Assembly: GCF_000026545.1 (NCBI RefSeq)
Contig: NC_011601.1
Reading direction: 5' to 3' (one strand)
DNA length: 64,000 nt
Source of the DNA: Escherichia coli O127:H6 str. E2348/69
GTDB taxonomy: Bacteria > Pseudomonadota > Gammaproteobacteria > Enterobacterales > Enterobacteriaceae
Made by a program: the position numbers and the translations under genes. Numbering within the stretch: position 1 is the stretch's first letter; each line of letters opens with the position of its first letter. This document shows positions 1 to 14,299 of the stretch, piece by piece. Below the pieces are notes generated by a model. The model had not been told where the DNA came from and did not search any database. It saw only the letters and a program-made list of their open reading frames with translations.

Positions 1-1
1 A

Positions 2-346
2 GCGCAGATGGGCGGGCTGGTGTATCGCGGTTTTGTCACTGGTAACGGCTTCAAACGACTGGGCGACACGCTGCGTTATTTGCAGGCGATTGAAAAACGA
101 CTGGAAAAACTGGCGATTGATCCACATCGCGACCGTGCTCAGATGCTGAAAGTCGAAAACGTCCAGCAGGCGTGGCAGCAATGGATCAACAAACTACCGC
201 CTGCACGTCGTGAGGATGAAGACGTGAAAGAGGTCCGCTGGATGATAGAAGAGCTGCGCGTTAGTTACTTCGCTCAACAACTTGGCACGCCTTATCCGAT
301 TTCGGATAAGCGTATTTTGCAGGCGATGGAGCAGATTAGCGGTTAA
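2..346 (+). CDS. hrpA: ATP-dependent RNA helicase HrpA, C-terminal fragment (5' end outside window)
   Basis: ORF open to window start (track 8..346); C-terminal HrpA-like sequence; hairpin terminator follows. Confidence 0.8.
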   Translation, partial: AQMGGLVYRGFVTGNGFKRLGDTLRYLQAIEKRLEKLAIDPHRDRAQMLKVENVQQAWQQWINKLPPARREDEDVKEVRWMIEELRVSYFAQQLGTPYPISDKRILQAMEQISG

Positions 347-365
347 CACTGCTATTTGCCTGATA

Positions 366-397
366 AATCTAAAACCCGGTAAGCATTTAGCGCCGGG
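366..397 (+). terminator. Rho-independent terminator downstream of hrpA
   Basis: stem acccgg/ccgggt with 13-nt loop followed by T-run. Confidence 0.6.
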
Positions 398-619
398 TTT
401 TTTATTAATTCTAAAAACGATAAGGGAAAAAATTCAGGAGTTCAGAAAAATACAATTCTCTGCTGCAAGATGAATAATGTTTATCTACAGCATTTCCTTA
501 AAAAAATATGTCAGGCTTGCGGAGTGGCAGTTAAGGAAATACGACTTCCTCCTTTCAGAGTGCTCCGCTTCTCACTATTATCTCACGCAGTATTCTTAAG
601 GGAACGATAAGGAGGAACC

Positions 620-1420
620 ATGAATATTACCCCGTTTCCGACGCTCTCGCCGGCAACCATAGACGCCATAAATGTTATCGGACAGTGGCTGGCGCAGGAT
701 GATTTCTCCGGTGAGGTGCCGTATCAGGCCGATTGCGTGATCCTTGCAGGCAATGCGGTTATGCCGACTATCGATGCGGCATGTAAGATTGCCCGCGATC
801 AGCAAATTCCTTTACTGATTAGTGGTGGTATCGGTCACTCGACAACTTTTTTGTATAGCGCCATCGCACAGCATCCGCACTACAACACTATCCGCACAAC
901 TGGCAGAGCTGAAGCTACCATCCTGGCGGATATCGCTCATCAGTTCTGGCATATTCCGCATGAAAAAATCTGGATTGAAGACCAGTCAACAAACTGCGGT
1001 GAAAACGCACGCTTTAGCATCGCGCTATTGAATCAGGCCGTAGAACGAGTTCATACGGCTATCGTTGTTCAGGACCCCACCATGCAGCGGCGCACGATGG
1101 CGACGTTCCGCCGTATAACCGGGGATAATCCCGATGCACCACGCTGGTTAAGTTATCCCGGATTCGTTCCTCAGTTAGGAAATAACGCAGACAGTGTAAT
1201 CTTTGTTAATCCGTTGCAAGGATTATGGCCGGTTGAGCGTTATCTATCGCTACTCACTGGCGAGTTGCCGCGTTTACGCGATGATAGCGATGGCTACGGC
1301 CCCCGCGGGCGAGATTTTATCGTTCACGTTGATTTTCCGGCAGAAGTCATTCAGGCATGGCAAACGCTGAAACATGATGCGGTGCTCATCGAGGCGATGG
1401 AAAGTCGCTCGTTACGTTAA
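620..1420 (+). CDS. ydcF: DUF218-family protein YdcF
   Basis: 266-aa ORF, strong RBS ggagg upstream, product recognised from K-12 gene order. Confidence 0.8.
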
Positions 1421-1616
1421 AAATTGCCCGTTTGTGAACCACTTGTTTGCAAACGGGCATGACTTCTGACTTTTATTTCTGCCTTTAATTCCTTTTACAC
1501 TTGTTTTTATGAAGCCCTTCACAGAATTGTCCTTTCACGATGCCGTCTCTCTGATAATCGATGTTAATTAACAATAAATTTACCAAAAACAAGCATGTAA
1601 ATCACAGGAGTCGCCC

Positions 1617-3056
1617 ATGTCAGTACCCGTTCAACATCCTATGTATATCGATGGACAGTTTGTTACCTGGCGTGGAGACGCATGGATTGATGTGGTAAAC
1701 CCTGCTACAGAGGCTGTCATTTCCCGCATTCCCGATGGTCAGGCCGAGGATGCCCGTAAGGCAATCGATGCAGCAGAACGTGCACAACCAGAATGGGAAG
1801 CGTTGCCTGCTATTGAACGCGCCAGTTGGTTGCGCAAAATCTCCGACGGGATCCGGGAACGTGCCAGTGAAATCAGTGCGCTGATTGTCGAAGAAGGGGG
1901 CAAGATCCAGCAGTTGGCTGAAGTCGAAGTGGCTTTTACTGCGGACTATATCGATTATATGGCGGAGTGGGCACGGCGTTACGAGGGCGAGATTATTCAA
2001 AGCGATCGTCCAGGAGAAAATATTCTTCTGTTTAAACGTGCGCTTGGCGTGACTACCGGCATTCTGCCGTGGAACTTTCCGTTCTTCCTCATTGCCCGCA
2101 AAATGGCTCCCGCTCTTTTGACCGGTAATACCATCGTCATTAAACCCAGTGAATTTACGCCAAACAATGCGATTGCATTCGCCAAAATCGTTGATGAAAT
2201 AGGCCTTCCGCGCGGCGTGTTTAACCTTGTACTCGGGCGTGGTGAAACCGTTGGGCAAGAACTGGCGGGTAACCCAAAGGTCGCAATGGTCAGTATGACA
2301 GGCAGCGTCTCTGCAGGTGAAAAGATTATGGCGACTGCGGCGAAAAACATCACCAAAGTGTGCCTGGAATTGGGGGGTAAAGCACCGGCTATCGTAATGG
2401 ACGATGCCGATCTTGAACTGGCAGTCAAAGCTATCTTTGATTCACGCGTCATTAATAGTGGGCAAGTGTGTAACTGTGCAGAACGTGTTTATGTACAGAA
2501 AAGCATTTATGATCAGTTCGTCAATCGGCTGGGTGAAGCGATGCAGGCGGTTCAATTTGGTAACCCCGCTGAACGCAACGACATTGCGATGGGACCGTTG
2601 ATTAATGCCGCGGCGCTGGAAAGGGTTGAGCAAAAAGTGGCGCGCGCAGTAGAAGAAGGGGCGAGAGTGGCGTTGGGTGGCAAAGCGGTAGAGGGGAAAG
2701 GATATTATTATCCGCCGACATTGCTGCTGGATGTTCGCCAGGAAATGTCGATTATGCATGAGGAAACCTTTGGCCCGGTTCTGCCGGTGGTCGCATTTGA
2801 CACGCTGGAAGAGGCTATCTCAATGGCTAATGACAGTGATTACGGCCTGACCTCATCAATCTATACCCAAAATCTGAACGTCGCGATGAAAGCCATTAAA
2901 GGGCTGAAGTTTGGTGAAACTTACATCAACCGTGAAAACTTCGAAGCTATGCAAGGCTTCCACGCTGGATGGCGTAAATCCGGTATTGGCGGCGCAGATG
3001 GTAAACATGGCTTGCATGAATATCTGCAGACCCAGGTGGTTTATTTACAGTCGTAA
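1617..3056 (+). CDS. aldA: lactaldehyde dehydrogenase AldA
   Basis: 479-aa ORF with aldehyde dehydrogenase motifs (ELGGKAP, FDSRVINSGQVC); RBS aggag. Confidence 0.95.
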   Translation: MSVPVQHPMYIDGQFVTWRGDAWIDVVNPATEAVISRIPDGQAEDARKAIDAAERAQPEWEALPAIERASWLRKISDGIRERASEISALIVEEGGKIQQLAEVEVAFTADYIDYMAEWARRYEGEIIQSDRPGENILLFKRALGVTTGILPWNFPFFLIARKMAPALLTGNTIVIKPSEFTPNNAIAFAKIVDEIGLPRGVFNLVLGRGETVGQELAGNPKVAMVSMTGSVSAGEKIMATAAKNITKVCLELGGKAPAIVMDDADLELAVKAIFDSRVINSGQVCNCAERVYVQKSIYDQFVNRLGEAMQAVQFGNPAERNDIAMGPLINAAALERVEQKVARAVEEGARVALGGKAVEGKGYYYPPTLLLDVRQEMSIMHEETFGPVLPVVAFDTLEEAISMANDSDYGLTSSIYTQNLNVAMKAIKGLKFGETYINRENFEAMQGFHAGWRKSGIGGADGKHGLHEYLQTQVVYLQS

Positions 3057-3064
3057 TGAGTGAA

Positions 3065-3092
3065 AGAGGCGGAGGTTTTTTCCTCCGCCTGT
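3065..3092. terminator. bidirectional hairpin terminator between convergent aldA and gapC
   Basis: aggcggagg tttttt cctccgcct inverted repeat. Confidence 0.7.
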
Positions 3093-3097
3093 GCGCG

Positions 3098-4099
3098 TCA
3101 GAGTTTAGCGAATTTTTCGAGGGTGCGAATAAGCTGTGTGACGAAGCCATATTCGTTATCGTACCAGGCGACCGTTTTCACCAGTTGTAAATCGCCCACG
3201 GCGGTAATTTCCGTTTGCGTGGCATCAAACACCGAACCGAAATGGCTGCCAATGATATCGGAAGAGACTATTTCTTCATCAGTATAACCAAATGACTCGT
3301 TATTGTTTGTCGCCTTTTTAAGCGCGTTGTTCACCTCTTCGGCAGTCACTTTCTTTCCGAGAATCGACACCAGTTCAGTGACCGAACCTGTTTTCACCGG
3401 CACGCGTTGCGCATGACCTTTCAGTTTGCCGCTCAATTCCGGGATCACCAGACCAATGGCTTTTGCCGCCCCCGTAGTGTGGGGAATGATATTTTCTGCC
3501 GCTGCGCGTGAAGCACGTAAATCTTTACCACGTGGGCCATCCACCAGTGACTGGGTGCCGGTATAGGCATGAATGGTCGTCATCGTGCCGACTTCTATCC
3601 CGAAACTGTCATGCAAGACTTTGGCCATCGGCGCAAGGCAGTTAGTGGTGCATGACGCCACGGAAACAATGGTGTCGTTGCCATCCAGAGTGTCGTCATT
3701 GACGTTATAAACGATGGTTTTCATTTCACCGGCAGGGGCGGAAATCAACACCTTCTTCGCGCCAGCATCAAGATGCGCCTGCGATTTCTCGGCGGAGGTA
3801 TAAAAGCCTGTACATTCGACAATGATTTCTGCGCCTTTCGCTTTCCACGGAATATTTTTAGCCTCTTTTTCGGCGTAAACCGCGATACTTTTCCCATCAA
3901 CGATAAGTGAATCTTCCGTATAATCAACGCTCCAGGGGAACGGTCCGTAGTTTGAATCATGTTTCAGCAGGTAGGCGAGAATTTTTGGGGAAGTGAGATC
4001 ATTAATAGCGACAACGTCTATGTTGCTTTTGACTTCAAGTAATCGACGCAACACCAGTCGACCGATACGACCAAAACCATTAATACCAACTTTACTCAT
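3098..4099 (-). CDS. gapC: glyceraldehyde-3-phosphate dehydrogenase GapC (intact)
   Basis: uninterrupted 333-aa ORF with GAPDH motifs ([19 protein letters not shown]). Confidence 0.9.
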
Positions 4100-4287
4100 G
4101 GTCTTCTCCTGTCAGGAACGTTCGGATGAAAATTGATCCTTTCCAGGCTTAGACCAGGATGGCGGGATGGGCAATCTACATTCTTGCAGTGAAACGTAAC
4201 GTACTGAAAACGGGTGAACAATATTTAATGAAATTTTAAGAAAAGCCCGTTATGTTAACGGCAAATTATGTTAAAGCAGGAAATGTT

Positions 4288-4818
4288 ATGGGAAATAAAT
4301 ACTCAAGGTTACAAATCAGCATTCACTGGCTGGTCTTTTTGCTGGTTATCGTAGCGTATTGCGCAATGGAGTTTCGTGGTTTCTTCCCACGTATCGATCG
4401 GCCCCTCATCAACATGATTCATGTTTCCTGTGGCATCTCAATTCTCGTACTGATGGTGGTTCGTCTTTTGTTAAGACTGAAATACCCAACCCCGCCGATT
4501 ACACCTAAGCCAAAACCGATGATGACGGGACTGGCGCATTTGGGCCATTTGGTGATTTATCTCCTGTTTATTGCGCTGCCAGTGATTGGTTTGGTGATGA
4601 TGTATAACCGGGGCAACCCGTGGTTTGCGTTTGGTTTGACGATGCCTTACGCTTCAGAGGCCAATTTCGAGCGGGTTGATAGCTTAAAGTCGTGGCATGA
4701 AACGCTGGCGAATCTGGGATATTTTGTCATCGGCTTGCACGCTGCGGCTGCACTGGCACACCACTATTTCTGGAAGGACAACACACTTCTACGCATGATG
4801 CCACGTAAACGTTCCTGA
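4288..4818 (+). CDS. cybB: cytochrome b561
   Basis: 176-aa product from internal ATG of ORF 4252..4818; membrane protein, histidine-rich helices. Confidence 0.85.
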   Translation: MGNKYSRLQISIHWLVFLLVIVAYCAMEFRGFFPRIDRPLINMIHVSCGISILVLMVVRLLLRLKYPTPPITPKPKPMMTGLAHLGHLVIYLLFIALPVIGLVMMYNRGNPWFAFGLTMPYASEANFERVDSLKSWHETLANLGYFVIGLHAAAALAHHYFWKDNTLLRMMPRKRS

Positions 4819-5062
4819 AGGATATTTAAAGAAAACGCCTGTACTAAAACCGACCCGTGGTACAGGCGAAGAATACGGGCCTACATCGGAAGCGCCTATT
4901 ATATTTATTTGTATGACAAATAAAACCATAATCCTTGTCTATACGTCCATCTGGCTTATCTTTAATCAATTCACCCGATCTTTGATCTCATCAACGGTAT
5001 CAAAATAACTCAGCGTATAACGTTCAAATCGAACATAAGATTCGATAAATCATGGAGGTTAT

Positions 5063-5236
5063 ATGAAAAAACTGGCACTTATCCTGGTTATGGGAACGCT
5101 TGTTTCCTTTTATGCCGATGCCGGGCGCAAACCCTGTTCTGGTTCGAAAGGGGGGATCTCACACTGTACGGCAGGCGGCAAATTTGTCTGTAATGATGGT
5201 TCTATTAGTGCATCGAAAAAAACATGCACTAACTGA
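5063..5236 (+). CDS. ydcA: small secreted/lipoprotein-like protein YdcA
   Basis: 57-aa ORF with signal peptide, RBS ggagg; not in ORF track (<60 aa). Confidence 0.65.
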   Translation: MKKLALILVMGTLVSFYADAGRKPCSGSKGGISHCTAGGKFVCNDGSISASKKTCTN

Positions 5237-5280
5237 AGTGTAAAAGGGGTGCCATGAGAAAATGAATCCGCTAGTCAGAT

Positions 5281-5300
5281 GCGCGGGGAAAATCCCCGCG
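5281..5300. terminator. palindromic hairpin at hokB 3' end
   Basis: gcgcgggga aaat ccccgcgc. Confidence 0.5.
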
Positions 5301-5307
5301 CTTGCCC

Positions 5308-5448
<141 letters not shown>

Positions 5449-5538
5449 TCATAGCCTTTCTCCTTGCCGGATGGCGGGTAAGAGGCTAAGATCTGAATTG
5501 CTAGGTTCATTCGTTGGCCTCGGTTTGTACTGTAGTGG

Positions 5539-5856
<318 letters not shown>

Positions 5857-5863
5857 CTAAGAG

Positions 5864-6940
5864 TCAAGCCGTTATCGGGATGCTGTTGATCTGCCTGTTT
5901 TGATTACGCAGTAATGTATAAACTTCGCGTGAGATATAGCGCTTCAGGCAGCGTATTGCTTCCATTTTTGTATGCCCTTCCGCTACTCGTCTGGCGACAT
6001 ATTCCTTCGTTTTATCGTCAGTTCGCAAACGTCCGATGGCAATGATGTGAAGTGCACTATTTGCAGCACGATCTCCACCCCGGTTAAGTCGATAACGATT
6101 CGTTTTTCCTGAAGATACGGGAACAGGGCTGACACCACACAGTGCCGCAAAACCTGATTCTGATCTTAATCGTTGGGGATTGTCTCCTGCCGTGATCAGC
6201 AACTGCGAAGCGCTTTCGTATCCAATAGCATTACGTTTAATCAGTTCAGGCGCCAGCTCATCGACAATTGCCGCAATCATGACATCCAAATCAGCGATTT
6301 CGTCATGTAACTCGAGATAGCGTCGGGCAAGGGACTTTAATGAAATACGATAAACGTTGGTAACATTGCGGTATTCACTGGCATCAGGCCGCCAGGATCC
6401 CAGAGTCCTGATGAGCTGCATGCGCGTCATATTTCTGAGCTGTTCACGTAATTCATCCGGGGCAGAGATAATATTGGAATGGATAATCTGGAGAGCGACT
6501 CTGCGGGCTGATATTGCTGTTTTTCGGCAAGTTTTTAATACCCGCAGAGACTCAATCATGCCATTGCGCGTTTTGGGTGTGACGGTTCTTATTCCGGAGA
6601 ATGCGGCGTGAGCGGCACATTCAGCATCAATCGTGTCACTTTTACCCCGTTTGCGTCGCTCCATCCGATCTGGCGCAGTCACCTCAAGAACGTCTAACCC
6701 GGCATTCTGTAAATAGCGAAGCAGACCTGATCCATAGGTGCCTGTACACTCAACACCAATTCGCTTTAATGCCCCAAACGAAGTCATCCATGCCAGCATC
6801 TGCCGGTAACCTTGCCGTGTTGTGGAGAAAAACTGGGTCCCCAGAACTTTATTGTTCTGATCTACGACAGCGGCAACGTGCAGATCTTTATGTGTATCCA
6901 CGCCACCCACAACAGCGGTTTCCGTAACTTTACCTGCCAT
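5864..6940 (-). CDS. IS110-family DEDD transposase/recombinase
   Basis: 358-aa ORF with N-terminal RuvC-like GVDTHKD / ECTGTY motifs and C-terminal SGK...NRYRL...GG region typical of IS110 family. Confidence 0.9.
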   Translation of the reverse strand: MAGKVTETAVVGGVDTHKDLHVAAVVDQNNKVLGTQFFSTTRQGYRQMLAWMTSFGALKRIGVECTGTYGSGLLRYLQNAGLDVLEVTAPDRMERRKRGKSDTIDAECAAHAAFSGIRTVTPKTRNGMIESLRVLKTCRKTAISARRVALQIIHSNIISAPDELREQLRNMTRMQLIRTLGSWRPDASEYRNVTNVYRISLKSLARRYLELHDEIADLDVMIAAIVDELAPELIKRNAIGYESASQLLITAGDNPQRLRSESGFAALCGVSPVPVSSGKTNRYRLNRGGDRAANSALHIIAIGRLRTDDKTKEYVARRVAEGHTKMEAIRCLKRYISREVYTLLRNQNRQINSIPITA

Positions 6941-7220
6941 AACAGAGCTCCTGTGAGGAAACAGAGTTGAATCTCCAGACAGATAACCCGGACAGGACAG
7001 TAACGAGACAAACCGTCAGGCCCTTCTTGAGTCACGCGCATCGGTGAGGAGACGCCTCGCATGAAGGCGCTTCCGGCAACCGACAGGTCCAGGGCAGGAC
7101 AAAAGGGTCGATCGCTGTGTGAGTCAGGATGCGGGAAGGTCTTCACTGCATCAGTAATCACACCAGTCTGGTTAAACAGCAAACAGAGTGATGATAAAAA
7201 CTGATACCGGCATTATTACT
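6941..7220 (-). ncRNA. candidate bridge (guide) RNA in the 5' non-coding end of the IS110-family element
   Basis: non-coding 280 nt upstream of recombinase; 7111-7119 identical to left flank 7221-7229; 7087-7097 is reverse complement of right junction 5840-5850; segments near 7020-7027 and 7051-7058 match the element right end 5848-5858. Confidence 0.45.
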
Positions 7221-8080
<860 letters not shown>

Positions 8081-8176
8081 TGGAGCACCTGTGTTGTTCT
8101 GAGGTGAGCATATCACCTCTGTTCAGGTGGCCAAATTCAGTGTGCCACTACATACTGACCCCAGAAAGTTGGACAG

Positions 8177-8712
8177 TTAAACACGAGGCATATAGGTCTG
8201 ATTCCGATATTCAATTGGAGTCAGACCTTTTAATTTCAGGCTAATTCTTCTGCTGTTGTAGTATTCAATATATTCCGTAACAGCATCCTTCAGCTCGCTT
8301 ATATTACTGAACTCATCAAGATAAAAACACTCCGACTTTAAGGTTCCAAAGAAACACTCCACCACAGCATTATCCAGACAATTGCCTTTTCTGGACATGC
8401 TTTGTTTAATACCATGTTCTTTAAGGACTTCTCATACGATACTGCCATCCCTGGTCAGAGTGCAGAACAGGATGCTCGTGAGGATTAAGCTTTTTGAATG
8501 CCTGATCGAGCATATTCCCGACCATGTTCATCACTGGTCTTTCCGAAAGGCTGTAAGAAATAACTTCGTTGTTGAAGAGATCTATTACTGGAGACAAATA
8601 CAGCTTGCGCCCATTGACTGCAAATTCAGTAACATCGGTAACCCACTTCTCGTTTGGCCGCGTAGCCTTGAAATCTCTTTGGAGAACATTGGGGGCGGTT
8701 TGCCCTACCTCT
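8177..8712 (-). pseudogene. IS150 OrfB (InsK) 3' fragment, additionally frameshifted
   Basis: two ORFs (8421..8750 and 8177..8398) in different frames; about 11 nt missing between ...WQYRMR and [15 protein letters not shown]. Confidence 0.75.
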
Positions 8713-8722
8713 CCTCTGTAAG
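8713..8722. repeat. target-site duplication, left copy (CCTCTGTAAG)
   Basis: identical 10-mer directly flanks both ends of the IS50-like element. Confidence 0.8.
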
Positions 8723-10272
8723 CTGTCTCTTGATCAGATCTCCTGATCAAGAGACTTCATCACCAGGTAACCCTCAACCATATCCTGAAGTCTGAACCAG
8801 CCATCCCACATGACTACCCAACCGGGGCGACCGGTGCGTTTGCTGTCATGCCATCGCCCCAGTTTCGCCAGTTTCAGACAGGCCCATTTCAGTGTCGGCA
8901 TCTGTGACGGAAGCGGTTTTCCTTCCAGCTTAACCCACAGCAGTTTCCACTCTGTCGGCGTCAGTATTTTCTCACAGCTGTCATTTTGTGTTTCTTCACT
9001 GATACCGCCCTGCCGCAGGCCCAGCACCCGCACCGCGATAAACGCCTTGATAACCACCATGCGCTCGAGGTTATCCCGGGTCTGCATTCGCAGCGATTCC
9101 ACACATGTACCACCACTTTTCCACGCCTTGTGGTATTCCTCTATCAGCCAGCGTCGCTCGTAATGGCTGACGATACGTCGCGCATCGGCGGCACTCGCCA
9201 CTTTTTCTGACGTCAGCAGATGCCAGCAGGCGCCGTCCTCTGCCTGCTCCCGGCAACAGACATACGTGAGCGGGAGCGCCTGGCCGCTGTTGTCGGGATT
9301 TTTTATGCTGACTTCGCTGTAACTGATGAACATCCGGGCCTGGCGGGCTGCCCGCCCGCCTTTTTGCATCACATTCAGCGTGTGGCTTCCCGCGGTTGCC
9401 AGGACTTCCGGCAGTTCGAAGAGCTTGCCGGGTGCTTCTTCCAGCCGGCGATTCTGTGCTGCACGCACCACGAAGCGCTGCCCGTGGCTGACTTTATAAT
9501 GCAGGTAATGCCAGATATCCGCTTCCCGGTCACAGACAGTGATTACCCGTTTCTGTATCTCCCCCAGCCGTTCGGCCATGCGCTCCGAAGCCTGCTGCCA
9601 GCGGTAACTTTCTTTTTCTTCATAGGGACGTTCTTTTCGCTGGTGCTTAACACCGTAGGTGTCCGTGGCACGACTCCAGCGCTGCTGTTCGATAAGACCG
9701 ACTGGCAGGGCGCTGTCGGGGGCGTACATCAGGACAGAGTGAGCCAGCAGCCCGCGCGTCTTCGGGTTAGTGGTGGTATTCCCCAGGTCATCAGATGCCG
9801 TACTGTGACTGAAGTTAATGGTGGTGGTGTCTTCCAGCGCGAGGAGCAGCGGATGAGCCTCACATGCCCTTACAGTGGCGGTAAATCCGGCTTCGGCAAT
9901 GGCTTGCGGGGACACAGACGGGTTACGTATCAGGCGGTACGCACCTTCAACCTGAGCAGTGGACTGGGATGATTTCACAATAGAAAGACCTGCATGCTGA
10001 GCGAGAGAAGAGGCCAGTGACACAAGGCGTCGTGTACGACGCGGATCACCGAGACGGGCATGTCCAAACTGCTCGTTAGCCCATGAATAACAATCAGAAA
10101 GTACCATAACAGACCCGAAGAAAATGAAATATAAGAGAAGATCAACGGGTGAGGAAAAAGTTCAAAAAATCGCTGCCGGGGAGGAAGGAAACTACCGGAT
10201 GGAAAGAGTCCCCCTAAAGCAGACTGACAGACATCACAAATCCCCGGGTGGGGATTTGTGTATAAGAGACAG
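8723..10272 (-). mobile_element. IS50-like IS4-family insertion sequence (about 1550 bp)
   Basis: 19-bp ends CTGTCTCTTGATCAGATCT (8723-8741) and rc CTGTCTCTTATACACAAAT (10254-10272); single transposase ORF; flanking direct repeat. Confidence 0.8.
8734..10107 (-). CDS. IS4-family (Tn5/IS50-like) DDE transposase
   Basis: 457-aa ORF; conserved [38 protein letters not shown] motifs; stop codon lies inside the terminal repeat. Confidence 0.9.
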
Positions 10273-10282
10273 CCTCTGTAAG
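10273..10282. repeat. target-site duplication, right copy (CCTCTGTAAG)
   Basis: identical to 8713-8722. Confidence 0.8.
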
Positions 10283-10577
10283 AGCGGTATCGCTTGACCT
10301 TAATCGCTGCCTTCAGTGAGAGGATTCCCATCAGGCGCTGAACAGCTTTATGGTTAATCTGTTTCCCTTCTCGATGAAGAGACAGCGTTACCCTACGGTA
10401 TCCGTATCGGCCTCTATTCTCATGATAAATCTCACCAATACGCTTTTTAACGTCCGCATACTTGTCAGGCTTGCTGAGAGCCTTTAGATGGTAATAAAAC
10501 GTACTGCGCGGTATCTCCGCAGCCCTGAGAAGCTCATCAAGAGGATAAAACTGCCTTAGCTCGTTGAGTACTTTCAC
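10283..10577 (-). pseudogene. IS150 OrfB (InsK) 5' fragment
   Basis: GTG-initiated frame MKVLNELRQFYPLDELL...KRYRSYRG then reads into the IS50-like insert. Confidence 0.8.
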
Positions 10578-11095
10578 TTTTTCGTGGGATGAGCTAAGGC
10601 TTTCAGCTTTTTTAGATACACAAGCCGCGTTTCAAGAAATCGAACTTGCCTTTCAAGATCCTCAATGCGTCGGTCTTTTGACAGCTCCAATGCTGATGCC
10701 GCTTTTTCTGGATCAACTGATATTGCAATGTTTCTTTTGGTGCCAATCTTGAGCGCGCGTAAACCAGCTTCTCCGCGCTCTTCATAAACCTTCAGCCACC
10801 TGGCTACAGAACCACTACCAGCAAGCATAAAGTGAGCAGCAGCCTGATTAAGGGACATGTGCTGCTCGATCACAGCTTTCATGACCTTAATACGCAACTC
10901 AGGAGCAGCACTAACACCTTTAGGTTTGGGAATTAAACCTTTTTCTCCATGTTTTTCATAGAGGGCAACCCATGTCCTGACCTGGGTTCGGGGGACACCA
11001 AAACGTGCCGAGATGATCCTGTAACCATCATCAGTAGTGAAGTAGTGATTCACGACTTCAAGGCGCTTTTCAAAAGGGTATTTTGGCTTTGACAT
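10574..11095 (-). CDS. IS150 OrfA (InsJ)
   Basis: 173-aa ORF MSKPKYPFEKRLEVVNHY... Confidence 0.9.
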   Translation of the reverse strand: MSKPKYPFEKRLEVVNHYFTTDDGYRIISARFGVPRTQVRTWVALYEKHGEKGLIPKPKGVSAAPELRIKVMKAVIEQHMSLNQAAAHFMLAGSGSVARWLKVYEERGEAGLRALKIGTKRNIAISVDPEKAASALELSKDRRIEDLERQVRFLETRLVYLKKLKALAHPTKK

Positions 11096-11334
11096 ATCAG
11101 GGGCTATTCCATTTCATCGTCCAACAAAATGGGTGCAGTACAGTTGATAGAAATATCGGTCGGGGCCTTCGTCTTTCTGATTCCCGGTTAGCCTGAAAAC
11201 AGAAAGTCTCAGGCACCCGTGAGCATCCTATGTGGTTTCCTTAGGGTCGAAAATAATCACCTGACGAAATTGCGTGCTGTTTTCCAGAATTTTTCGTCAT
11301 TCGGTTTAGTCAGTTTAATCATTCGTTACTCTCG

Positions 11335-11778
11335 CAAGGCCGTGGATTTGCCGTTGTCGCCAGCGAAGTACGGACACTCGCAAGCCGCAGCGCCCAGACG
11401 GCGAAAGAGATTGAAGGCTTGATCAGTGAATCAGTCAGGTTAATTGACCTGGGATCGGATGAGGTGGCAACGGCAGGGAAAACCATGTGCACTATTGTTG
11501 ATGCCGTCGCGAGTGTCACACATATCATGCAGGAAATCGCCACCGCCTCGGATGAACAAAGTCGAGGCATAACGCAGGTTAGCCAGGCGATTTCTGAAAT
11601 GGATAAGGTGACGCAACAGAATGCTTCTCTGGTAGAAGAGGCCTCAACGGCAGCGGTGTCCCTTGAAGAACAGGCGGCACGATTAACTGAGGCGGTGGAC
11701 GTATTCCGTCTGAACAAACATTCTGTGTCGGCAGAACCTCGCGGAGCTTGTGAACCAGTTAGTTTTGCTACGGTGTGA
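11335..11778 (+). pseudogene. trg: methyl-accepting chemotaxis protein Trg, 3' fragment only
   Basis: frame encodes MCP signalling domain from [12 protein letters not shown]... to C-terminus; no 5' part of the gene, IS cluster lies upstream. Confidence 0.75.
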
Positions 11779-11815
11779 AAATGTTAAAGGAGGGATCGAC
11801 AGATCCCTTCACCTT

Positions 11816-12739
11816 TCAGAACGGCATTGATTTTCGAATAGCGTTAATCATCAACTGGCAACCAGAAGAGAACGTCGCATCTACGCGGGTCAGTATTCCA
11901 ATCGGTTCGCCTGCACCATGTCCCGGAACAGGCAGGGCTACCAGCGTGGCATGACGCAGGTCGTCTTTTACAGCGCCAGAAGGGACAAACCACACGTAAT
12001 CGTATTCAACCGTAAGTTGACGAGATAGCGAAGCAGACAGCGTTTCGATACAACCCGAAGGAATTTTACATCCCTGGCTCTGCACTAATGCATCTGAATG
12101 CTGGCGTGGCGCAGTGCCTTCTGGTGATACAACGACCGGCCATTCCAGCACCCGGTTTAGCGTTACGTTCTCCTGAAGTAGCGGGTGATTGGGGCGGACA
12201 ACCAGCTTCAGCGATTCAAGAAACAGCAGTTCGTAATTAAGCCCGTTCATCAGTTCAGGATCTGACATCCGACCAATGCCGATATCGATTTCCCCGGTTT
12301 TTAAACCCGCCAGAATCATAGGGTTACTCATTGTCGCAACTTGCAAGGTCGTCTCTTTTTGTTGCTGATGAAACTGACCTATAACCGAAGGTAATATCCC
12401 TAGTGCCGCAGTAGGTAGCGCACCAACCCTGACGACATCATTATTAAGACCTTCTTTACGATGAAGCGACTGTCCGGCAGTGTTGATGGCGTCAAGAACT
12501 CTGACTGCATGCGTTAAAAATTGTTCGCCGGGTAAGGTAAGTTGCGCCCCCTGACGACCACGCTCAAACAAGCGAGCGCCCGTCAGCTGCTCCAGTTCAT
12601 TCAATGTCTTAGAGAGCGCAGGTTGACTCAAATTAAGGGTTTCAGCCGCGCGCCCCAAAGTTCCTTGTTGTGCGACAGCTACGAATGTATGAAGGTGGCG
12701 CAAACGGATGCGCTGACTAAACAGACTATTTTTTTCCAT
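11816..12739 (-). CDS. ydcI: LysR-family transcriptional regulator YdcI
   Basis: 307-aa product from internal ATG of ORF 11816..12880; N-terminal HTH. Confidence 0.85.
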   Translation of the reverse strand: MEKNSLFSQRIRLRHLHTFVAVAQQGTLGRAAETLNLSQPALSKTLNELEQLTGARLFERGRQGAQLTLPGEQFLTHAVRVLDAINTAGQSLHRKEGLNNDVVRVGALPTAALGILPSVIGQFHQQQKETTLQVATMSNPMILAGLKTGEIDIGIGRMSDPELMNGLNYELLFLESLKLVVRPNHPLLQENVTLNRVLEWPVVVSPEGTAPRQHSDALVQSQGCKIPSGCIETLSASLSRQLTVEYDYVWFVPSGAVKDDLRHATLVALPVPGHGAGEPIGILTRVDATFSSGCQLMINAIRKSMPF

Positions 12740-12955
12740 AAGCGATGTTAAAAACGAAGCGGTGTCGCTGACAAGTGAAGTTGTTTTATTATGATAACTT
12801 GATTGCAAAATATTATTAACAATTAAAGCAACTATGTTACAGCAAAATGGATAATATTGATGTTTTCGCGGCGAGATCACAGTTTGTAAATTCTTCCAGC
12901 CGGAGTGAATGCGGTTACCTACACTCCAGATTACTGACCACTGGAGGCAGACACT

Positions 12956-14299
12956 ATGGCGAACAGCATCACGGCGGATGAGATTCGGGAACAGTTTTCG
13001 CAGGCAATGTCAGCCATGTACCAGCAAGAAGTTCCGCAGTACGGCACGCTGCTGGAACTGGTAGCTGATGTAAATCTGGCGGTGCTGGAAAACAATCCTC
13101 AACTGCACGAAAAAATGGTAAATGCAGACGAGCTGGCGCGACTGAATGTTGAACGTCATGGGGCTATTCGCGTTGGGACTGCACAAGAGCTTGCTACTCT
13201 TCGGCGGATGTTTGCCATTATGGGGATGTACCCGGTGAGCTATTACGATCTCTCGCAGGCGGGAGTGCCGGTACATTCCACAGCATTTCGGCCCATTGAT
13301 GATGCTTCTCTGGCGCGTAATCCCTTCCGCGTTTTTACCTCATTACTCCGCCTTGAGCTTATCGAGAACGAGTTATTACGCCAGAAAGCGGCGGAGATTC
13401 TGCGTCAGCGCGATATCTTCACCCCACGTTGTCGACAACTGTTAGAGGAATATGAGCAGCAGGGCGGTTTTAACGAAACACAGGCACAGGAGTTTGTGCA
13501 GGAAGCCCTGGAAACGTTTCGCTGGCACCAGTCAGCAACGGTAGATGAAGAAACCTATCGCGCCTTGCACAACGAACATCGGTTGATTGCTGATGTGGTC
13601 TGTTTTCCTGGATGCCATATCAACCATCTGACGCCACGTACGCTGGATATTGACCGGGTGCAGTCGATGATGCCTGAATGCGGAATTGAACCCAAAGTGC
13701 TGATCGAAGGGCCGCCGCGCCGCGAGGTGCCGATTTTACTACGCCAGACCAGCTTTAAAGCACTGGAAGAGACGGTGTTGTTTGCGGGGCAGAAACAGGG
13801 CACGCATACCGCGCGCTTTGGTGAAATTGAGCAGCGTGGTGTGGCATTAACGCCGAAAGGGCGACAACTGTATGATGATCTTCTGCGGAGCGCTGGAACC
13901 GGACAGGATAATCTCACTCACCAAATGCATTTACAGGAAACCTTCCGCACTTTTCCTGACAGTGAGTTTTTAATGCGTCAGCAAGGGCTGGGATGGTTCC
14001 GGTACCGTCTGACGCCTTCGGGTGAGGCGCATCGTCAGGCGATTCATTCCGGAGACGATCCACAGCCCTTAATAGAACGTGGTTGGGTAGTGGCGCAACC
14101 CATTACCTATGAAGATTTCTTGCCCGTTAGCGCGGCGGGGATCTTCCAGTCAAATCTGGGTAATGAAACGCGGGCATGCAATCACGGTGATGCCAGTCGC
14201 GAAGCATTTGAGCAGGCGTTGGGGTGTCCGGTTTTGGATGAGTTCCAGCTTTATCAGGAAGCGGAAGAACGCAGTAAACGTCGCTGTGGTTTGCTTTAA
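12956..14299 (+). CDS. ydcJ: DUF1338-family protein YdcJ
   Basis: 447-aa ORF. Confidence 0.85.
   Translation: MANSITADEIREQFSQAMSAMYQQEVPQYGTLLELVADVNLAVLENNPQLHEKMVNADELARLNVERHGAIRVGTAQELATLRRMFAIMGMYPVSYYDLSQAGVPVHSTAFRPIDDASLARNPFRVFTSLLRLELIENELLRQKAAEILRQRDIFTPRCRQLLEEYEQQGGFNETQAQEFVQEALETFRWHQSATVDEETYRALHNEHRLIADVVCFPGCHINHLTPRTLDIDRVQSMMPECGIEPKVLIEGPPRREVPILLRQTSFKALEETVLFAGQKQGTHTARFGEIEQRGVALTPKGRQLYDDLLRSAGTGQDNLTHQMHLQETFRTFPDSEFLMRQQGLGWFRYRLTPSGEAHRQAIHSGDDPQPLIERGWVVAQPITYEDFLPVSAAGIFQSNLGNETRACNHGDASREAFEQALGCPVLDEFQLYQEAEERSKRRCGLL

Follow-up and report, generated by a model that had tools for sequence, protein, structure and literature searches.

A native hokB–trg spacer is very probably what lies between IS150 and the trg remnant in Escherichia coli E2348/69

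The window, a 64,000-nt stretch of E. coli O127:H6 strain E2348/69 (contig NC_011601.1), holds a 191-bp segment (11143–11333) between an IS150 end and a truncated trg gene that matches neither IS150 nor the trg coding sequence. We conclude, with high confidence, that this segment is the native chromosomal spacer between the divergent hokB/sokB and trg loci, stranded by two independent lesions. For the annotation of the window this removes a mystery, as no new mobile element is present, only spacer DNA between two well-understood scars. In substance the finding is already known, and only two points described below, the origin of tls in two steps and a hotspot for IS150, go, slightly, beyond the literature that we found.

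The identity of the segment follows from colinear pairwise alignment with E. coli strain 042, in which trg is intact. Positions 1–4003 of the 042 locus align with window 1529–5525, 4001–4191 with window 11143–11333 (gapless, two mismatches, 99% identity), and 5525–8191 with window 11334–14000. In 042 the segment has hokB (3781–3930, minus strand) on its left and trg (4329–5969, plus strand, ATG at 4329) on its right, and it adjoins these two genes directly wherever the IS is absent, including in K-12, where the syntenic sequence is 94% identical. The window retains aldA, gap, cybB, ydcA, yncP, and hokB on the left, beyond the IS cluster, and the trg 3′ end, ydcI, ydcJ/hglS, and opgD on the right; this is the standard E. 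coli cybB-hokB-trg-ydcI neighbourhood of the K-12 annotation (cybB-ydcA-hokB-trg-ydcI). The first-pass annotation had set aside 11144–11334 as an unassigned stretch without the expected Trg residues. Its edges were correct to within 1–2 bases and the Trg residues are indeed lacking, the alignment to 042 filling the gap completely. Its suggestion of a rearrangement joint also stood, at both ends: on the right, a deletion of 1333 bp has left a blunt joint, and on the left, the joint is that of an IS150 insertion.

At the right edge, the blunt joint (11333–11334) marks the loss of 1333 bp relative to 042 (4192–5524), made up of the 137 bp that precede the trg start codon together with trg nt 1–1196 (the first 399 codons); no microhomology or repeat was found at the joint. 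The first trg-derived base, 11334, closes Trg codon 399 as its third position, and whole codons begin with Q400 (CAA) at 11335, in agreement with the earlier placement of a chemoreceptor-like Trg frame from about 11335. The trg 3′ remnant (11335–11778, plus strand) encodes Trg residues 400–546 and the stop with 97.3% identity to 042 trg, and PGAP annotates it as a methyl-accepting chemotaxis protein missing its N-terminus. The deleted interval also holds the sequence TAAGAAAT-N11-GCCGATGA (042 4263–4289). The consensus of sigma-28 flagellar promoters is TAAAGTTT-N11-GCCGATAA, with which the deleted sequence agrees at 4/8 and 7/8 positions, a partial match made by eye that gives it a resemblance to a sigma-28 flagellar promoter of trg; the exact consensus was not found in the 042 locus.

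Truncated trg genes of this kind have acquired a literature of their own. According to PMC12623472 (EMBO J 2025), which cites Lane et al. 2006 and Borziak et al. 2013 on the subject, the truncated trg of phylogroup B2 strains, long held to be a pseudogene, encodes Tls (Trg-like signaling protein), which acts by sequestering FlhDC and whose function was shown in UTI89 and S13. The same paper reports that Tls needs a short N-terminal sequence foreign to Trg, MNVRIVLLS, for its activity, and that the arginine R4 of this sequence is needed for polar localization and repression. It names E2348/69 as a carrier of TlsN*, a variant with a 12-residue N-terminus that proved inactive, with no polar localization and no gene repression, when tested in MG1655 from a plasmid, fused to mCherry, and not as the native E2348/69 allele (PMC12623472).

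By translation, this published N-terminus is encoded in the window at 11299–11334 on the plus strand (ATT-CGG-TTT-AGT-CAG-TTT-AAT-CAT-TCG-TTA-CTC-TCG), in frame with Trg Q400, the last base being the trg-derived 11334. The E2348/69 allele therefore has the layout reported for TlsN*, with Trg 400–546 fused to a short non-Trg N-terminus, and it shares its trg breakpoint with the other B2 tls alleles. Its N-terminus differs from theirs, however, and does not carry the MNVRIVLLS motif with R4. The functional alleles (UTI89, CFT073, Nissle, and 25DN) have undergone a further deletion into hokB and start at a GTG in antisense hokB, whereas E2348/69 keeps the whole spacer, begins with ATT, and encodes the variant reported to be inactive.

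The strongest competing reading is that the segment serves E2348/69 as the working 5′ region of a functional tls, supplying promoter, start, and N-terminal codons to a protein that represses flagellar genes as in UTI89-like strains. From 11257 onwards no stop interrupts the frame across the joint, and its codons give exactly the N-terminus published for TlsN*; 602 complete genomes, ST131 among them, retain this allele; and Tls of other B2 strains is reported to be functional (PMC12623472). Yet TlsN* is without the arginine on which activity depends and failed in the assay just described. The first codon, given as M in PMC12623472, is ATT in E2348/69, and the same holds for H105 (ST131) and for the spacer of 042, where nothing is deleted; no in-frame ATG, GTG, or TTG occurs between the stop at 11254–11256 and the deletion joint, and no Shine-Dalgarno-like sequence was seen upstream of ATT 11299. 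Weak transcription, or weak translation from ATT 11299 or from internal candidate starts such as the TTG at 11419, may nevertheless occur. In addition, the sigma-28-like promoter falls in the deleted interval, and read-through from upstream is blocked by 5.6 kb of IS DNA. We therefore regard a working tls in E2348/69 as very improbable. Because the allele has ATT in place of a canonical start, no visible Shine-Dalgarno-like sequence, a lost promoter, and 5.6 kb of IS DNA upstream, it is most likely a true pseudogene.

The left edge of the stranded spacer was made by IS150. The IS150 left terminal repeat (…GGGTGCAGTACA, plus strand) ends at 11142; base 11143, which had been taken for the terminus, is the first flanking base. 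Positions 4001–4003 of 042 (GTT) align to both window 5523–5525 and window 11143–11145, the left and right copies of a target-site duplication whose length of 3 bp is that expected for IS150. Alignment to the uninterrupted 1443-bp IS150 of H105, together with the PGAP annotation of E2348/69, delimits an IS150 at 5526–11142 (minus strand) that contains two nested insertions. The first is an IS3-family element (5533–8152), 7 bp from the IS150 right end and itself split by ISEc21, and the second is ISEc13 (8723–10272), so that four IS elements are nested in 5526–11142. Both H105 and SF10 carry the uninterrupted 1443-bp IS150 at exactly the same site. Comparison of the window with NZ_CP059840.2 gave a single 1-base indel, somewhere in window 6000–11000.

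Owing to this IS DNA, hokB now lies 5.6 kb from the segment. The detached half of the locus contains the hokB coding region (5308–5452, minus strand, ATG at 5452–5450), identified by alignment to hokB of 042 and H105. Relative to both, hokB of E2348/69 has a 5-bp deletion in codons 3–5 (window 5440–5452, minus strand) that shifts the frame to MKRSGGVS… instead of MKRNPLVV…; PGAP calls a 44-aa Hok-family toxin here from an internal start. The 57-nt sokB of K-12 (K-12 locus 1620–1676) matches window 5500–5525 plus 11143–11176 exactly. From the transferred K-12 annotation, the 5′ 26 nt of sokB (5500–5525, plus strand) adjoin the IS150 right end, while the 3′ 34 nt (11143–11176, plus strand) stand in the segment, severed from their promoter and 5′ end.

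The opposite strand of the segment holds nt 1–76 of the leader of the hokB mRNA (11143–11218, minus strand). IS150 cuts the leader after this point, splitting sokB as well, so that these 76 nt are now followed by the left end of IS150 and by insJ. The leader was recognized by Rfam model RF01794 ('sok antitoxin (CssrC)'), which matches the minus strand with model position 1 at 11218 and scores 70.3 bits against a gathering score of 59; the genuine part of this match covers model positions 1 to ∼83, positions 84–157 being forced onto the IS150 terminus. The model reaches 109.7 bits on the 042 sequence, where it continues without interruption into the hokB AUG, and it therefore describes the hok-sense leader and not the antisense RNA itself. 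When the IS block and one GTT are removed in silico, the leader becomes identical to its 042 counterpart. The 76 nt still present in the segment form the expected 5′ hairpin and a small second hairpin (−28.5 kcal/mol, z = −4.5). A permissive Rfam search of the window returned RF01794 as its only match; a SNORA29 match in 042 (E = 0.19) was disregarded as chance.

Upstream of the leader, 11219–11260 (minus strand) is the presumed hokB promoter region, as read from the sequence. It contains a −10-like hexamer, TAGGAT (11230–11225), 6 nt upstream of the first base of the leader, with no good −35 element. Since a sigma-70 promoter and terminator scan of 11050–11450 gave nothing at threshold, this promoter is assigned by position only. 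The remainder of the spacer (11261–11298) carries no identified feature; it is colinear with intergenic DNA of 042 and K-12 in which nothing is annotated. insJ of IS150 lies on the same strand as hokB, and transcription from the orphaned hokB promoter would thus be expected to read into this transposase gene.

By colinearity and by its above-threshold RF01794 score, then, the segment contains the 5′ regulatory part of hokB/sokB. It does not belong to an intact, working module, because 5.6 kb of IS DNA lies within the leader and sokB and because hokB is frameshifted. Given that hokB mRNA and sokB RNA cannot be made intact, that the trg remnant has lost its sigma-28-like promoter and has no canonical start, and that TlsN* was inactive in the published test, the segment is most likely functionless.

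The distribution of the segment is that of ordinary chromosomal DNA. By megablast, 5102 of 5426 complete E. coli genomes (94%) contain 11143–11334, with a median of one copy per genome and no annotated feature beneath it, and the remaining 324 lack it altogether; 4 of its 5120 places were on plasmids, and the sequence sits at one chromosomal locus. The other half of the first-pass annotation's proposal was a leftover of a different mobile element, a reading that may be extended to foreign DNA in general. The segment does adjoin a cluster of four IS elements, and hok/sok modules are known above all as addiction systems of plasmids. Against this, it is a single-copy sequence at the same chromosomal locus in 94% of these genomes, K-12 and 042 among them, is contiguous with hokB and trg, shows no multi-copy spread, terminal inverted repeat or transposase homology and no IS annotation, and aligns end to end with the native spacer. 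We consider a mobile origin refuted by the distribution and by the 042 alignment, and give it almost no credence. Equally negligible is the idea, named at the outset as the outcome that would overturn the first assignment, that the segment is degenerate trg coding sequence with many point changes: it directly adjoins the trg remnant and shares its reading frame, but the 042 alignment refutes this, since the matching 042 sequence ends 137 bp upstream of the trg ATG, so that the segment is colinear with DNA preceding the start codon, and no part of it aligns to trg nt 1–1196.

To count the two lesions that bound the native spacer, separately and together, we used composite queries, as an 801-bp query could not separate genomes with and without IS150 (its non-IS part alone exceeded 80% coverage). 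A 300-bp query centred on the deletion joint found the joint in 602 of 5426 complete genomes. A three-part query, requiring IS150, spacer, and remnant together, found joint and IS150 in 76 genomes, and a chimeric query requiring the uninterrupted leader together with the joint found the deletion without IS150 in 526, the two adding up to 602. IS150 occupies this site beside an undeleted trg upstream region in a further 500 genomes. The IS150 insertion and the trg deletion are thus independent, and IS150 entered the site on other genetic backgrounds too.

From these co-occurrence counts we infer that in the E2348/69 lineage the deletion came first and IS150 later. An old deletion, common to many phylogroup B2 strains, would have taken away codons 1–399 of trg together with its promoter region, fusing the spacer in frame to Trg residue 400. 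IS150 would then have entered the leader of the hokB mRNA behind nt 76, within sokB, and in E2348/69 this IS150 would have taken further IS insertions that pushed hokB 5.6 kb away.

The retained spacer also bears on how the functional tls allele may have arisen. The 25DN locus (3483–3520) reads …GTG-AAT-GTC-AGA-ATC-GT/G-TTA-CTC-TCG/CAA-GGC… (slashes mark the joints), and CFT073, Nissle 1917, ABU 83972, and ATCC 25922 carry the same allele. Its trg breakpoint is identical to that of E2348/69 and is preceded by the same 10 bp, GTTACTCTCG (window 11325–11334), upstream of which lies the antisense strand of hokB, truncated there. Most simply, a second deletion in an E2348/69-type allele appears to have given rise to the common B2 tls allele, and would have brought in the GTG start together with the MNVRIV residues. 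In the passages of PMC12623472 consulted, the B2 deletion is presented as one shaded region, and the two-step order is not spelled out there. If correct, the two-step origin shows how a functional tls could arise in two deletions from a dead pseudogene, and provides a small, concrete example of how the antisense strand of a toxin gene can furnish a new gene start.

The MNVRIVLLS-type allele is present in an estimated ∼311 of the 5426 complete genomes, obtained as 837 − 526 because the raw count of 837 is too high, the search having joined hokB and trg pieces of single-deletion genomes; the estimate agrees with the number of genomes without the segment (324). The single-deletion allele (602 genomes, including ST131) is thus about twice as frequent. 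Pandemic ST131 and the EPEC strain E2348/69 therefore carry a tls allele that is reported to be inactive, and that outnumbers the MNVRIVLLS type.

IS150 has entered the leaders of other hok genes in the same way. The IS150-junction query also matched IS150 beside hokE (AR_0151) and hokA (EC21Z-097), at 84–88% identity. The insertion sites in the hokA, hokB, and hokE leaders fall at homologous positions within 3 bp of one another and in the same orientation relative to hok, and each has its own target duplication (CTT at hokA, GTT at hokB, GGG at hokE), which identifies them as independent IS150 insertions into one hotspot. Judged from the sequence, insertion at this hotspot would place the hok promoter upstream of insJ. 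Taking the two proposals together, we think it likely that the E2348/69/ST131-type allele is the ancestor of the UTI89/CFT073-type allele and that IS150 targets a 3-bp spot in hok leaders, in one orientation, with the hok promoter reading into its transposase gene.

Pedersen and Gerdes reportedly described, in 1999, IS elements beside K-12 hok genes and the inactivation of chromosomal hok/sok loci by IS elements. The E2348/69 locus resembles such IS-inactivated loci in that the IS lies close to but outside the hok frame and parts hok from its promoter and leader. It differs from K-12, in which hokB is without an IS, in having both IS150 and a 5-bp frameshift in the hokB region. A literature search for hokB together with IS150 found nothing; hok/sok homologues have been listed among mobile-element insertion hotspots, and an IS150 insertion assigned to trg has also been reported (bioRxiv 10.1101/527788). 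Among the loci that we extracted, the hotspot junction lies at 3100 in L005, L006, and L007 and at 4143 in L002, corresponding to 11142 in the window.
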